The notes beneath the pieces are model-generated. The model ran no database searches, had not been told where the DNA came from, and worked only from the letters and a program-made list of their open reading frames with translations. This document shows, piece by piece, positions 59-4,589 of a DNA stretch of 4,589 nucleotides; position 1 is the first letter of the stretch, and each line of letters starts with the position of its first letter. The stretch is from a virus. Lineage: Duplodnaviria; Heunggongvirae; Uroviricota; Caudoviricetes. The DNA lies in IMG/VR virus record IMGVR_UViG_2724679543_000008. One strand, 5' to 3'. The translations under genes were made by a program, and so were the position numbers.

Positions 59-205
59 TCAGGACGGTAAGCCTGACAGGTAGCCCGGAATGAGGGTCTT
101 GATAGCGAGCGACAACGGATAGGACTGACCGTCCAGACTCACAGTGTTTTCATAAAGGTTGATGTCGGTGACTGACAGCTTCCAGTTGTTGTTGTTGAAC
201 ATCAT
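59..205 (-). CDS. hypothetical small protein, 48 aa (MMFNNNNWKLSVTDINLYENTVSLDGQSYPLSLAIKTLIPGYLSGLPS)
   Basis: Hand-translated minus-strand ORF, ATG at 205-203 (second in-frame ATG at 202-200), TGA stop at 61-59. Strong SD GAGGAG 8 nt upstream of the ATG (rc of ctcctc at 214-219). Same strand as the Rha operon. Absent from the ORF track, which appears to list only ORFs of about 60 aa or more. No recognisable domain. Confidence 0.35.
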   Translation of the reverse strand: MMFNNNNWKLSVTDINLYENTVSLDGQSYPLSLAIKTLIPGYLSGLPS

Positions 206-502: not shown

Positions 503-1249
503 TTAGATTCCCTCCACCTTACCGGATTGTGCCAGCTTCAGGAGGTGCTCTTGCTTCTGCTGGTCGGTGCCAGTGAATGCAATAAGGATGCCTCGCATCT
601 TGTCAACCATCTCAGGCTTACCGAAGACCTCCAGCCCCTTAGCGTTGAACCGGAAGTTATACCCACCTGCTGAGAACTTCTGGTCTGACGGCTTAATGAT
701 ACGAAAGCAGTCGGAATACTTCGGATTTACAGACCACTCGTTACTGATTGGGTTCTTACGAAAGAGGCCACGATGCTGGAGAAGTGCGGTCATTAGCTTC
801 TGAGCGGGCAGACCATAGGTTTTGCAGTAGTCGCCCCAAGTCACGCCTCGGCGGTTAGCGGACTGAATGGCTGCTCGCTTCTTCTGGTCTTCCAGTTGAA
901 GGACTCGACGCTCTAACGTCTGAATATGGTCGTAACACTTGGCGCGGAGGTGAACGGAATAGCCAGCGACCAGAATGAAAGTATGCTTACGGTCGAGACG
1001 ATACATTGTTCGGCTCTCACCTTTCGCGTCCTTGTATACTTCCTCGCCAACGAGCCCAAATTTGGACCCGTTAAGCTCGCTGCTCAAAGTTGAGCAGTGC
1101 TCAGTTTTGGCCCCGTTAAGCTCTTCGACCATATTACGAATATCTCGTAAAACGTGTTTATGTTCTTTTCCTGTCAGCTCAGCAATTTCAACTGAGGTCA
1201 TGGACACAAGCTGGTCGAGGTTAATGATGCTGATTTCTTGTTGGGACAT
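503..1249 (-). CDS. Rha-family phage regulatory protein / antirepressor-like protein, 248 aa
   Basis: ORF-track ORF with ATG start. Canonical SD AAGGAG (rc of ctcctt at 1259-1264) 9 nt upstream. N-terminal segment SMTSVEIAELTGKEHKHVLRDIRNM resembles the conserved core of the Rha domain (recalled motif of the form ssrEIAELtGKrHdnVlRDI). C-terminal half is compatible with an antirepressor-type (KilAC/ANT-like) domain, but that is a weaker, memory-based call. Confidence 0.8.
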   Translation of the reverse strand: MSQQEISIINLDQLVSMTSVEIAELTGKEHKHVLRDIRNMVEELNGAKTEHCSTLSSELNGSKFGLVGEEVYKDAKGESRTMYRLDRKHTFILVAGYSVHLRAKCYDHIQTLERRVLQLEDQKKRAAIQSANRRGVTWGDYCKTYGLPAQKLMTALLQHRGLFRKNPISNEWSVNPKYSDCFRIIKPSDQKFSAGGYNFRFNAKGLEVFGKPEMVDKMRGILIAFTGTDQQKQEHLLKLAQSGKVEGI

Positions 1250-1563
1250 TTACGTGTACTCCTTTTGTTTGCACCCTGAAGTCGCACCCCACTGACCTAC
1301 TCAAGCCCCCACGTAAAGGGAGACCAGCAGGCAACAGGACGCAAACAGAATGACTTGAGGTAATTGGGGTTAGTGGTCTGCGATGACCATAGAGATGAAG
1401 GTTCGACAGCATGTCCGAGCGTGTGTGGTGATAGACTTAAGTCACGAGACCAAAGAACACACAGGCTGACCAGAGGCTGTCTTGCCTTAGGCTGGTGGCT
1501 AGCTTGCTAGCGTGGACCACGGTTTCTCGCTTGCCGTCTCTCAGGAGGTCAGAGGCGAGATAT

Positions 1564-1586: not shown

Positions 1587-2124
1587 CAAACAGGAATGAA
1601 CTTCGGAGAACTTGACGCGAAAGTGTTCAGTACTTCCAGTAAGACCCGAAGCATGGAGACCACATCATAGCGACCATAATTTTACTTCGGGTTGGCGGGA
1701 GTGGAGGCTGGACTTAAAGTTCTTCTTATTGGAATTGTGATAACACAATCCATAACAAGATAAACTCATGGTCTCCTCCAGCCTGCTGGTCAAGACTCAA
1801 AGCTCCAACCTCAGACACCACTGATCTAACCTCTTTGAGTTTCCGCCTGTCCACAAATGGATGGCAGACCTCAGTAATGGTGTCTTGGTTCTTCAGTTAT
1901 CCGCGCAGCGATTATCACAGAGCCAACTTAAAGTCGGATGTGGTCTACTGCTCCCCGCCTGTCAAAAGGGAAGATAGCTTACGTTAAAAGGAATGGTCTC
2001 AGGCCAAGGTGATTTAACACTAGGCGTCTGCGGATGGTTTCCAATCGGTCCGCTACCGGAAGCCTGAGACTTAATGAATGTGTGTATGGGTCGTGACTGC
2101 TATTAAGGTGGGGACTTAGGGTCT

Positions 2125-2147
2125 CTCCCCTATAGTGATAGTTAAGG
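2125..2147 (-). promoter_or_regulatory. T7-family phage RNAP promoter-like site P2 (-17..+6), predicted +1 G at 2130
   Basis: Minus-strand sequence CCTTAACTAT CACTATA G GGGAG. Shares a 16-nt identical block with P1 (plus-strand ccctatagtgatagtt). Core -8..+3 identical to T7 consensus. Confidence 0.6.
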
Positions 2148-2367: not shown

Positions 2368-2787
2368 TTACCGCCAGGACACTTTTGCAATATCGTCTTG
2401 GTTATCCAAATGATCCGCCGAGAAATTAAAGCTCGAAGTATACGAATCGCCGTGAGCAATAGCGTCTCTTACCTCAAGACACTCTTTGATAATTTGGTAA
2501 GGTTTTGTCCCCATATAATTGTTTATACCGCACAATTTTAACGTATTCTTGTGCATTGTCTTTCTGCACTCTTTCTGCGTCTTATCGTAGCCGGGGTCAA
2601 CCTGTTTTCTATAGAAGATGAACATTGCCTCAATAGCAAAAGCAGTAAATATTATACCTGTGCGGCAATGATGCTCACGTTGCCAATCTTCCGAAGCCAT
2701 TCCAGCCAGCCCCAAACAAGTTTCAGCAGTATTCATACATTCATATGAAGGCTTATTTTCTTTGCTAACTAAAAATTCTTTGACCAT
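2368..2787 (-). CDS. hypothetical protein, 139 aa (AT-rich accessory/cargo gene; possible HEPN-like Rx4H motif)
   Basis: ORF-track ORF with ATG start at 2787 and SD-like GAGGA 4 nt upstream. Starts 31 nt downstream of the integrase stop on the same strand. Markedly lower GC than flanking genes (hand count: 23/60 GC in 2521-2580 versus 36/60 in 3421-3480). Contains EVRDAIAHGDSY near the C-terminus, which fits the R-x4-H signature used by HEPN-type RNases, but a single motif is weak evidence. Confidence 0.6.
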   Translation of the reverse strand: MVKEFLVSKENKPSYECMNTAETCLGLAGMASEDWQREHHCRTGIIFTAFAIEAMFIFYRKQVDPGYDKTQKECRKTMHKNTLKLCGINNYMGTKPYQIIKECLEVRDAIAHGDSYTSSFNFSADHLDNQDDIAKVSWR

Positions 2788-2818: not shown

Positions 2819-4429
2819 TTACTTTCCGTCTATTTTTTTTACTGACAATGACTCCGCTAATTTTTCTTTCAGCGTTTCCACCTCGACCTCTTTCGCGTAA
2901 CGGTCGTAAGTTATAGACCCTGAGCTATGACCCATAATCGCCTGAGCATACGCTAACTCGACCCCATGTTGTTTTAACTGGGTCGCAACTGTATGTCTAA
3001 ACGAGTGAAAAGCTAAGCCGCTACGGTCAGCGAGGACTTTGGGCAGCAACGTTCGGTTAAACCACTTGCTAACCTGCTCACCGTAGCCGTTCTTCATTAG
3101 CTTGAGGCCATTGAACACCATAGCATTATCACCCTCAGTCTTTCTACGGTCTTCCACGAGTGACATAAAGTCAGCCAATACAAAACCATAAGCACCATCT
3201 ACCAACGGGACACAGCGGTCACTGTGGGCGTTCTTGATACTCTTACCCGGCAGGCTGCTATCGTCTTCGTTGATATGGATAAAAACGGTCCCAGCCTCAG
3301 TGGTCCTGACATCTTTAACCTGAAGTTGGGCCACCTCGTTAAGTCTCGCACCTGTAATCGCAGCCAGAGCGGTGACGTAATAATGGTATGGCTTACCTGA
3401 GGTCTTCTGCGAGTACGCTTTAGCTGCGACCAGTAGTTGCCCTACCTGCTCAGGACTGAACGCATCACGAGCGTCGGAGGCTTTACGCTGAGGGACTTTC
3501 AGCTCAAGACCTTCGGTCAGGTTCTTAGCTATCAAGTCGTTGCGTACCGCCCACTTAAACACAGCAGCCATCTTGATAAGATATTTATTGTTAATGGTAA
3601 CGACGTCCAGACAGTCAGTCTTAGACTCCCGGTTCAGCAAGTCAGACAGCGGCATAGACTTAAAGCGTTGCTTGCGGTTCTTCGGTAGCTGCTGGAGGAC
3701 TTCACGAACTCTGAGCATATCTGCACGGGTCGCCTTGCCGACATCCTGAATATCCAGATAGTCGAATATCTCGATTAGCGTAGAGTGTGACGCTCGGTTT
3801 TCGCTTAGGGTCGCTGGCTTCCAGTTCTGGGCGTTCTCCTGCTCGTACTGCTCAATGAGAGACGCGAGGGTCAGTGCTTTAGGTTCAGGGACTTCAGGTT
3901 CCGCCAATACAGATAGGGAGACGGACGGTCTTAGACTGCCAGTCTCAGGCTCAAGGTAAGACAATAGGCCAGAGCTATCGCCATTGAGTCTATCCTGACA
4001 GGCCTTAAGCACACCGATAACGTCATTAATATAGCGATGCTGGTCTACAGTCAGACGCTCGGTCGCTACAGCTTCCCGAAGGTTGGACTTAATGTCATCG
4101 TACTGGTCAACGTAAAGCTGGTAGGACTCCGGGTCGTTCAGGTCATCACGGCTGACACTAAGTTCCCACTCGACAATGGTCTTCAGGTGCTCCCGTAGCT
4201 CCTCATAAGAGGCGTTAGGGTTGTCTGCATGGATTGCTTTAAGTGCTGACTTGATGTGCCGTGAGTGAGCCATAGCGGTACGTCTATCCTTGGTCCGTAA
4301 AGATACTGACGCTAGTTTATAACGGTTGTGAGAAGGAAGCGAAGCGGTCAGGCGACTAGTGGTCTTCATCCTAAGACGGATGTAAAAGACACCATTACGC
4401 TGATAAAGGTAGGTTCTTGACTTGAGCAT
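2819..4429 (-). CDS. int: tyrosine site-specific recombinase (phage-type integrase), 536 aa
   Basis: ORF-track ORF with ATG start and AAGG SD 9 nt upstream. C-terminal catalytic domain carries the recalled tyrosine-recombinase signatures: TGARLNE (box I Arg), HSFRHT (H-x-x-R box II), GHSSGSITYDRY (catalytic Tyr). N-terminus (YLYQRNGVFYIRLR) resembles integrase arm-binding N-termini. Sits immediately downstream of a tRNA 3' end on the same strand, the classic island/prophage arrangement. Confidence 0.9.
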   Translation of the reverse strand: MLKSRTYLYQRNGVFYIRLRMKTTSRLTASLPSHNRYKLASVSLRTKDRRTAMAHSRHIKSALKAIHADNPNASYEELREHLKTIVEWELSVSRDDLNDPESYQLYVDQYDDIKSNLREAVATERLTVDQHRYINDVIGVLKACQDRLNGDSSGLLSYLEPETGSLRPSVSLSVLAEPEVPEPKALTLASLIEQYEQENAQNWKPATLSENRASHSTLIEIFDYLDIQDVGKATRADMLRVREVLQQLPKNRKQRFKSMPLSDLLNRESKTDCLDVVTINNKYLIKMAAVFKWAVRNDLIAKNLTEGLELKVPQRKASDARDAFSPEQVGQLLVAAKAYSQKTSGKPYHYYVTALAAITGARLNEVAQLQVKDVRTTEAGTVFIHINEDDSSLPGKSIKNAHSDRCVPLVDGAYGFVLADFMSLVEDRRKTEGDNAMVFNGLKLMKNGYGEQVSKWFNRTLLPKVLADRSGLAFHSFRHTVATQLKQHGVELAYAQAIMGHSSGSITYDRYAKEVEVETLKEKLAESLSVKKIDGK

Positions 4430-4563
4430 GTACTGAGACCTTAGGTCTGCTCACTACTTCAACAAAGTTAGTCACAGTGTTGGTTACAGTGAGTAAAACT
4501 ATCGGAAGGCGTTAAGCCGTATCCCTTAGGATTCAGTAAGTTAGTAGACTTTAAGAAGTGTCA

Positions 4564-4589
4564 TGGAGCGGGCGAAGGGAATCGAACCC
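4564..4589 (-). tRNA. glyU: tRNA gene, 3' portion only (T-arm, acceptor 3' strand, discriminator, CCA); consistent with tRNA-Gly (CCC, glyU-type); 5' part lies beyond the window edge
   Basis: Minus strand reads GGGTTCGATTCCCTTCGCCCGCTCCA: T-loop TTCGATT, T-stem 3' strand CCCTT, 7-nt acceptor strand CGCCCGC, discriminator T, encoded CCA ending at 4564. This matches my recollection of the 3' end of enterobacterial tRNA-Gly(CCC). The anticodon is outside the window, so the isotype is recalled, not demonstrated. Confidence 0.65.

Follow-up and report, generated by a model that had tools for sequence, protein, structure and literature searches.

A probable structured RNA gene behind phage-type promoters in a small satellite-like island

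Phage-inducible chromosomal islands of the capsid-forming type (cf-PICIs) are elements of 10-15 kb which contain a complete module for heads and packaging (portal, protease, terminases, connectors) and take no more than the tails of their temperate helpers. In phage T7 the core of the primary origin consists of the tandem phage promoters phi1.1A and phi1.1B, with an AT-rich region directly downstream. The CI RNA of P4 and the c4 RNA of P1 and P7 are tRNA-like non-coding RNAs of about 70-80 nt, made from promoters of the host polymerase and active in the immunity of the uninfected cell; RNase P processes them from the operon leader of a satellite or prophage, upstream of ant. Mini-satellites of virulent phages have been described as well, namely the phage-inducible chromosomal minimalist islands (PICMI) and the marine virion-encapsidated integrative mobile elements (VEIME) (PMC10803314, PMC9618062). 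The locus discussed here is part of a stretch of 4,589 nucleotides (the window) from the virus record IMGVR_UViG_2724679543_000008 of IMG/VR, in which an interval of about 540 bp (positions 1587-2124) is placed between two phage-type promoters, P2 and P1. The window is a small satellite-like island, a point missed by an earlier examination made from the letters alone (the sequence-only reading), and no description of this island or of its RNA was found in the literature searched. The interval is probably a gene for a structured RNA controlled by phage polymerases; most likely it holds the gene for a folded minus-strand RNA of about 370 nt.

According to the sequence-only reading, neither strand has an open reading frame (ORF) of 60 codons or more between P2 and P1. 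A listing of all ORFs of at least 30 aa bore this out for 1587-2124, where the longest ORFs reach 50 aa (1835..1987, plus strand) and 42 aa (three ORFs). Such an absence of long ORFs across 540 bp is unremarkable by itself. What goes beyond chance in the interval is its conservation, together with a pattern of substitutions that preserves base pairs. The conserved unit is a core of 367 nt (1719..2085, minus strand), of which 28 distinct copies were gathered from E. coli, Shigella, Salmonella Typhi, Leclercia, Buttiauxella, Kluyvera and metagenomes by a genome scan for the Rha protein, by viral scans and by one metagenome scan with the pattern GACAGGCGG-N88-116-GGACAGGCGGAAAC; additional copies were found in Salmonella Typhi, in Kluyvera and in islands inserted in ynfE. 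The 28 distinct copies form alignment A1, equivalent to 2085..1719 of the window (minus strand). Among complete E. coli genomes the core is present in 163 of 5426 (3%, O26 and O111 included), always on the chromosome and in one or two copies, and no annotation lies under it in the E. coli records listed. Its mean column identity is 84%, equal to or higher than that of most neighbouring coding modules. Islands with unalignable integrases still share 86-96% identity in the core, and the core is about 88% identical where the 163-aa protein encoded downstream drops to 55%. The RNA core is the best-conserved module of the island family.

The broader stretch 1250-2370, present in E. coli genomes, gave no match by blastn against 50,697 phage records, and in the plasmid collection it was found in one Enterobacter record, which is merely another copy. 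In Rfam 15 the whole window (E<=1) gave a sole match, the tRNA- or transfer-messenger RNA (tmRNA)-like 3' end at 4561-4589, and positions 1250-2180 searched alone (E<=10) gave no match, c4, phi29 packaging RNA (pRNA), RNAI, STAXI, HEARO, tmRNA and ribozymes included. ARAGORN recognised nothing tRNA-like. On both sides of the core the sequence is less constrained. The predicted P2 transcript begins with a variable, indel-rich leader of about 45 nt (to 2086, minus strand), different in sequence among the homologues, which in most of them starts with a run of G followed by a run of C; in the window its first part, GGGGAGAGACCCUAAGUCCCC (2110..2130, minus strand), forms a hairpin in the minimum free energy fold, GGGGA pairing with UCCCC, and this may be a stabilising 5' hairpin of the T7 style. 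Between the core and P1 lies a 3' trailer of about 130 nt (1587..1718, minus strand), rich in insertions and deletions, which is about 90 nt shorter in four relatives (L035, L040, L041, L050) and only about 50 nt long in a Kluyvera copy (L075).

Covariation across homologous elements, proposed as a check in the sequence-only reading, was analysed in A1. The RNAalifold consensus of A1 comprises 100 pairs in 16 helices, and 14 of these pairs show compensatory changes. Of all pair cells 98.5% are paired, versus 35-45% when the partners are slid by 1-3 columns; the same slid controls contain 0-2 pairs changed on both sides, versus the 14 observed, and the observed covariation score was reached by none of 500 shuffles. 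The substitutions also distinguish the strands: G-U occupies 341 cells (12.7%) and A-C only 18 (0.7%), the structure mirrored to the opposite strand is only 86.5% paired, and the antisense consensus fold is weaker by 10 kcal/mol. The excess of G-U together with the weaker mirrored and antisense fold therefore assigns the fold to the strand made from the phage promoters. The non-coding RNA, one of several options of the sequence-only reading, receives strong support from the covariation, from the strand-specific G-U pairs and from its site directly behind phage-type promoters.

In the consensus model, a long-range helix closes off the four domains of the core. In this closing helix 1, positions 2079-2074 (AUUCAU) pair with 1769-1764 (AUGAGU) on the minus strand; it is 95% paired, and the only copies that break it are L022 and L055, with an insertion at 1764..1769. 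Domain 1 (1996..2070, minus strand; helices 2-5) has a 10-bp stem, GUCUCAGGCU with GGCCUGAGAC, around three small hairpins, and compensatory changes are found in it at A1 pairs 23-89, 25-86 and 71-81. Domain 2 (1895..1979, minus strand; helices 7-10) is a Y-shaped three-way junction with the hairpin loop UUUGACAGGCGG and displays the strongest covariation: its helices are 100% paired, with nine pairs changed on both sides. The domain exists in two alleles (15 versus 13 sequences) which differ in about one third of the columns and keep every pair, one of them (152-176) being seen as AU, GC and UA. Folded alone, 12 of 14 distinct variants of domain 2 adopt the same Y shape. Domain 3 (1810..1888, minus strand; helices 11-13) is a long stem, AAGACACCAU with GUGGUGUCU, whose inner hairpin bears the second GACAGGCGG motif, and its pairs change between UG and CG or among GC, GU and AU. 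Domain 4 (1775..1802, minus strand; helix 14) is a hairpin with the loop ACCAG, in which ACCAGCAGGCU is nearly invariant and the 3' strand includes a Shine-Dalgarno-like GGAGG. A direct repeat, CCGCCTGTC, occurs at 1843-1851 and 1955-1963 on the plus strand. Some further candidates were tried and rejected: the long-range pairings 1729-1743/1912-1926 and 1657-1666/1937-1946 are lost in the second allele; the flanking helices of a hammerhead-like CUGANGA/GAAA motif are unfit, and Rfam gave no match to it; and an 11-nt GAAA receptor, CCUAAG / UAUGG, has unpaired flanks.

It could be argued that the interval is a spacer without function, or a gene in decay, and is conserved only through a recent spread of the island. 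The island family is indeed young and mosaic, many copies being more than 95% identical, and L022 and L055 carry a pseudogene remnant beside the core. This explanation is nevertheless very unlikely, as the core remains 86-96% identical though the flanking modules are unalignable or, as proteins, 55-64% identical, and the diverged allele of domain 2 retains every pair; the appearance of unconstrained sequence in this place can be seen in the variable leader and trailer.

The best small ORF indicated by the sequence-only reading was found as described: 34 codons on the minus strand (1665..1769), with ATG at 1769-1767, stop at 1667-1665 and the translation MSLSCYGLCYHNSNKKNFKSSLHSRQPEVKLWSL, preceded by a GGAGGA Shine-Dalgarno sequence 4 nt before the ATG (GGAGGA, then GACC, then ATG). 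It is nested within a 42-aa ORF with a TTG start (1665..1793). The suggestion that the interval encodes this 34-aa peptide (MSLSCYGLC...), or a shorter leader peptide by means of GGAGGA-ATG, can draw on the strong Shine-Dalgarno sequence so close to the ATG, on the presence of ATG in 25 of the 28 copies and on the first nine codons, which are often retained. Coding is however not conserved, since in 8 of the 28 homologues the start is lost, the frame is shifted or the 5' part is replaced: L005 has CTG instead of ATG, L022 and L055 have a different 5' part with no AUG, and in five copies insertions of 1 nt in a hairpin loop shorten the ORF to 14-15 codons. Most substitutions in the ORF alter the amino acid (L>S, C>Y, Y>C, N>S, N>H, K>E), the peptide has no Pfam family match, and no stop-free frame is common to the 28 homologues. 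Moreover, both ribosome signals are paired within conserved helices, the Shine-Dalgarno sequence in helix 14 and the AUG in the 3' strand of closing helix 1. A peptide gene is accordingly the least probable of the explanations considered here, and the peptide option of the sequence-only reading can hardly be maintained.

Further evidence for the structured RNA gene comes from the promoters. The sequence-only reading had spoken of tandem promoters around the interval, and sites do flank it, but their type had not been recognised: judged by sequence, they are promoters of phage single-subunit RNA polymerases and not of the host. P2 (2125..2147, minus strand; CTTAACTATCACTATA followed by GGGGAG, predicted start 2130) is a K1F-type promoter and matches the 16-mer AACTATCACTATAGGG exactly. 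This 16-mer has two exact copies on the minus strand, 1582-1567 and 2143-2128, where 0.03 would be expected by chance; the other copy belongs to P1 (1564..1586, minus strand, predicted start 1569), a second K1F-type promoter located upstream of the Rha operon. The third site, P3 (2153..2175, minus strand; TAATACACCTCACTATA followed by GAGGAA, predicted start 2158), was read from the sequence as a promoter for a T7/T3-like single-subunit polymerase; its motif TAATACACCTCACTATAGAGG (about 2175-2153) stands 28 bp upstream of P2. When the 34-nt P2 consensus of the relatives was compared with sites of K1F-like phages, 27 of 27 bases matched. Phages of this group (Kayfunavirus: K1F, EcoDS1, CR44b, SH3 and others) have 7-11 such sites per genome, K1F itself nine, and several of the sites are annotated as "promoter". 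At the position of P3 the relatives have TATACCCTCACTATAGGGA, which resembles promoters of T7-like phages of Enterobacter and Cronobacter; this second promoter type (TATACCCTCACTATAGGGA or TAATACACCTCACTATAGAGG) also resembles the consensus of T3 and T7. No sigma-70-like promoter or intrinsic terminator beyond chance was predicted on the minus strand. The interval thus appears to be set up for leftward transcription, from predicted starts at 2158, 2130 and 1569, by the polymerase that a T7-like phage brings in on infection, and since its promoters are of the phage single-subunit type, it is predicted to be transcribed only during infection by such a phage.

All relatives that bear the RNA keep both promoter types around the interval; most have tandem pairs in the manner of P3 and P2, and some duplicate such pairs at P1. 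In Salmonella Typhi (L070, 6034-6630) and Leclercia (L006, 5058-5645) a promoter pair of two specificities, ACCCTCACTATAGGG with AGCTATCACTATAGGG, is found at each end of the RNA gene. Judged by these duplicated dual-specificity promoters, it looks as if the island hedges between two lineages of helpers. In two copies (L002 and L003, about 4424-5673; E. coli ECMA0423 and S. flexneri SFBU1023) the upstream half of P1 is replaced by an IS911-like element inside this promoter, which is a further sign of the decay of these islands through hits by insertion sequences (IS) in Shigella-like genomes.

Near the 3' end of the core lies an AT-rich palindrome or hairpin of about 24 nt (1730..1752, minus strand; UGGAUUGUG-UUAU-CACAAUUCCA). 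The sequence-only reading had located it correctly, ATTGTG at 1734-1739 and CACAAT at 1744-1749 around ataa, but called it imperfect; the 6-nt arms are perfectly complementary, and pairing reaches beyond them (TGGATTGTG with CACAATTCCA, 1752-1730). Its stems are identical in 28 of 28 copies, the only changes being insertions of 1 nt confined to the 4-nt loop in five copies, which fits a hairpin loop. The palindrome is unchanged whichever integrase or Rha-type gene the island carries, therefore any protein that reads it should be a constant partner (of the helper, of the host or of the capsid module of the island). To this AT-rich element the origin or binding-site option of the sequence-only reading may apply.

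An extended form of that option would make the interval an element acting at the level of DNA, an origin primed by the phage polymerase and/or a packaging site for the helper machinery, with the folded RNA incidental or serving only as primer. In its favour, tandem phage promoters also form the heart of the primary origin of T7, the island lacks any recognisable gene for replication or terminase, so that both functions must be borrowed, and the only AT-rich stretch contains the palindrome, unchanged from copy to copy. On the other hand, a single-stranded fold of the transcribed strand, and not duplex DNA, is indicated by the compensatory changes and by the asymmetry of G-U over A-C. The AT-rich stretch (1710-1769, GC content 0.30, compared with 0.42-0.53 across the first 340 nt) is situated 360-420 nt downstream of the promoters, unlike in T7, and the region has no match among the phage records searched. 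As to packaging, local (Smith-Waterman) alignment with the terminal repeat and concatemer junction of K1F scored 22-24 against a shuffled null of 22.1 +/- 1.9, and the sense strand has no exact class II pause site ATCTGTT but near-misses only (ATCTTGTT, ATTCTGTTT); in K1F, TATCTGTA stands at the end of the terminal repeat. A DNA-level element is for these reasons regarded as unlikely, though not to the degree of the spacer or the peptide. Two related candidates were discarded: mimicry of the packaging site, suggested by identities of 11-12 nt to the terminal repeat and right end of K1F, since the local alignment equals the shuffled null, and antisense targeting of K1F transcripts, where the best match (14 of 15 nt, E of about 4) is at chance level.

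Downstream of P1, the first protein gene behind the phage promoters encodes a Rha or anti-repressor-like protein of 248 aa (503..1249, minus strand; Pfam Phage_pRha, 1.5e-18; PHROG 10324 "anti-repressor Ant", 2.6e-62). It is preceded by an untranslated leader of about 320 nt (1250..1563, minus strand), the last 110 nt or so of which are highly conserved. The leader contains GCCUGCUGGUC (1334-1324, 75-85 nt upstream of the Rha start), which is perfectly complementary over 11 nt to GACCAGCAGGC of the core (1791-1781); by estimate, about 0.03 such matches are expected. The partner in domain 4 is a near-invariant stretch comprising the hairpin loop and the adjoining strand of the stem. Two types of Rha leader exist, each tied to one of two kinds of downstream gene, and the conserved last 110 nt hold a hairpin, GGUCUCCC...GGGGGCU, a region which may be a second regulatory RNA element.

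The interval could on these grounds be a long cis-acting 5' leader that controls the operon from Rha/Ant to the capsid gene by processing, stability, pausing or pairing with the Rha leader, an analogue of c4/ant and P4 CI. It belongs to the same transcription unit, upstream of an Ant/Rha-like gene, it has the 11-nt complementarity that is so rarely expected by chance, and no terminator is predicted between the core and P1. P1, however, lies between the RNA and the operon and is able to drive the operon without the RNA; the RNA is unchanged where an unrelated 161-aa gene replaces Rha and the complementarity is weakened; 367 nt in four domains is far above the size of known leader regulators; and there is no Rfam match to c4 or any other family. 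An operon leader of this kind is thus considered improbable, about as much as the DNA-level element.

Several observations weigh against a structured RNA gene and should be set beside the evidence for it. The activity of the promoters and the stability of the RNA are both inferred from sequence. Most of the compensatory changes come from two haplotypes of one domain and so may go back to few evolutionary events; the domains other than 2 vary little, and invariant pairs are uninformative either way. The energy of single-sequence folding fails to separate the strands (z = -3.8 and -3.6), and the antisense alignment likewise yields a consensus fold. The invariant palindrome fits sequence-specific recognition, possibly at the level of DNA, better than a plain RNA stem. 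The complementarity between core and Rha leader is weakened without compensation in islands with the other leader type, and no covariation was seen in it. Finally, one island (L068) has a 122-aa ORF between its two promoters and lacks the RNA, which consequently is not indispensable in every island. As L022 and L055 keep the RNA beside a pseudogene remnant of that same ORF, the slot between the promoters can evidently hold another module. In L068 (2043-2500) a third promoter variant, ATTAAATTATCACTATAGGGAACG, is seen, and its 122-aa ORF belongs to PHROG 23123, a family of no assigned function.

The surroundings of the RNA gene are those of a small integrative element. Read from right to left on the minus strand, the window contains the 3' end of a tRNA-Gly gene (4561-4589), a tyrosine integrase of 536 aa (2819-4429, minus strand), an ORF of 139 aa (2368-2787, minus strand), the promoters and the interval, the Rha/Ant-like gene, a 58-aa ORF and a truncated gene for a scaffold-like protein of 163 aa (59..205, minus strand), of which the first 48 codons are left. 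The truncation is caused by the end of an IS of the IS3 family (1-60) that matches thousands of places in E. coli genomes. Because the IS cut the island inside the 163-aa gene, the window copy is devoid of the capsid genes, and its RNA gene, intact in its own sequence, is probably left over from an element that was once complete. Complete relatives continue with the 163-aa gene and then a gene of about 329 aa.

Complete islands measure 6.2-6.7 kb between direct repeats and are inserted at tRNA-Gly (glyU, beside ETT2), within ynfE or at a further site. The 17-nt repeats at tRNA-Gly are 6372-6460 bp apart, and another relative has a 16-nt repeat at a distance of about 6620 bp. Measured from repeat to repeat in nine relatives (L001, L021, L050, L053, L070, L022, L068, L073, L075), four lengths fall within 6350-6375 bp, one is 6460 bp, and the remaining four islands measure 6242, 6293, about 6620 and 6712 bp; in the two shortest islands the repeat may not be the attachment (att) site. 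Lengths so tight despite a differing gene content may reflect a packaging size constraint, given that six copies amount to about 38 kb and the genome of K1F to 39.7 kb. Metagenome and Logan contigs of 6.2-6.7 kb showed no terminal overlap and no circular form, and one of them was plain chromosome. The contig of L068 stops 15-25 bp beyond the att repeat on either side, which is what a sample with both integrated and empty or excised forms should give; this is suggestive but not decisive.

The same module of RNA and capsid is found with at least three mutually unalignable types of integrase (in the window, L019, L006 and L073; of 536-540 aa at tRNA-Gly, of about 450 or 530 aa at ynfE, among others), which demonstrates modular exchange of the integration function. 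The cargo slot between the integrase and the promoters is variable too. In many relatives it is occupied by PD-T7-4/RAZR (DUF4145; PADLOC E = 1e-102), in some by an unrelated 202-aa ORF. RAZR, a HEPN RNase, is activated by T7 and T3 portal rings (PMC13017515), and PD-T7-4 often overlaps an integrase gene (PMC9519451). The 139-aa ORF in the same slot of the window has no Pfam or PADLOC match and only a weak PHROG match (E = 0.008) to a family of no assigned function; it is a candidate anti-phage gene. No AlpA or primase was matched by Pfam, PHROGs or NCBIfam among the proteins of the island.

The 329-aa protein, annotated as "hypothetical protein" (L001 10579-11568, L002 7620-8609), has no family match, and a profile search of PDB sequences was likewise empty. 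Its AlphaFold model from an alignment of 12 sequences reached a predicted local distance difference test score (pLDDT) of 35; after remote homologues from a profile search had been added, the pLDDT was 81. With this model the top Foldseek matches were all encapsulins and major capsid proteins of phages, T7-like ones included, at a probability of 1.0, and as nothing but capsids and encapsulins was matched, the protein is, on the strength of the model, an HK97-fold major capsid protein. Profile comparison with hhalign detected no relation to gp10 of K1F. The 163-aa protein, conserved in its N-terminal part and charged and helical in its C-terminal half, looks like a scaffolding protein; some RefSeq records name its gene "peptidase M16 family". 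Taken together, the island looks like a miniature capsid-encoding, satellite-like element wired to the promoters of T7-like phages.

If the structured RNA gene is accepted, the following course of events can be proposed. The RNA would be silent in uninfected cells and would be synthesised in bulk once a T7-like phage brings its own polymerase. During infection by a K1F-like or T3/T7-like phage, this polymerase would transcribe the island from P3/P2 and from P1, giving a primary transcript of about 560 nt. Its first nucleotide would be 2130 (2158 if made from P3), and it would begin with a 5' hairpin such as T7 late transcripts have. The RNA would be the first and most abundant product of the island, and transcription would run on through P1 into Rha/Ant, the scaffold-like gene and the capsid gene. 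It would act by its shape and not through a peptide, by binding a protein of the helper or of the island, by priming, by packaging or by control of the downstream operon, for which the 11-nt complementarity of domain 4 with the Rha leader offers a lead. The island itself would be a satellite-like parasite of T7-like phages which detects its helper by promoter mimicry. As the RNA is more conserved than the proteins of the island, it probably performs a step that the island cannot do without.

A wider claim, which is put forward tentatively and is rather doubtful at present, is that the RNA is the signature part of a new kind of satellite of virulent T7-like phages, one that recognises the helper through promoters and combines its own HK97 capsid with a polymerase-dependent folded RNA, so that the RNA would constitute a new functional class of satellite RNAs. 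Its role might then be that of a structured primer for the helper DNA polymerase, of a pRNA-like packaging cofactor or of a decoy for a helper protein. No paper describing a satellite of T7-like phages was found in the literature searched. Sensing of infection through the phage's own promoters would, if true, be a simple, general and engineerable trick. It is also worth attention that a large structured RNA has been overlooked in genomes as well studied as those of E. coli, Shigella and Salmonella Typhi, being unannotated in the records examined, and that the island is a natural carrier of RAZR/PD-T7-4, which gives a mobile-element context to this defence system.

Among described systems, the RNA works, by its placement, most like the leader-encoded P4 CI and P1 c4. 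As there, a non-coding RNA lies in the untranslated leader of the main operon, upstream of an Ant/Rha-type gene and on the same strand, and possesses a short stretch complementary to the downstream leader. The likeness fails on size, homology and promoter type: instead of about 70-80 nt made from host-polymerase promoters, 367 nt in four domains are found behind phage-polymerase promoters, the core has no Rfam match and its complementarity to the leader does not covary. The T7 primary origin shares with the locus two phage-polymerase promoters (28 bp apart here) at the head of a non-coding stretch, but in place of an AT-rich region directly downstream the island has the structured, GC-balanced core of 367 nt. 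ColE1 RNA II (a structured pre-primer of about 550 nt) and phi29 pRNA are large folded RNAs whose shape serves replication or packaging, and the predicted primary transcript here is of about 560 nt; with no similarity in sequence or covariance model and no antisense partner promoter predicted, the likeness is conceptual only. HEARO, GOLLD, ROOL and STAXI are likewise long, multi-domain, covarying RNAs of phage-related or integrase-linked elements. None of their Rfam models matches the core, which as far as searched occurs only in Enterobacterales and is under phage-type promoters.

For the island as a whole, cf-PICIs offer the parallel of a chromosomal island with its own HK97-fold capsid protein, yet instead of a full head module only the capsid gene and a scaffold-like gene are present, wired to T7-type promoters. 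PICMI and VEIME are closer in format, as very small integrative elements made of an integrase and a few genes, with defence cargo and an apparent dependence on a virulent helper. PICMI have a core of AlpA and primase, reside next to fis and have no capsid gene, whereas the present island is inserted at tRNA-Gly or ynfE and has no AlpA or primase match. VEIME are without major capsid genes, whereas the island has genes for an HK97-fold capsid protein and a scaffold-like protein. To both of these, the island adds promoters for phage single-subunit polymerases and a large structured RNA.

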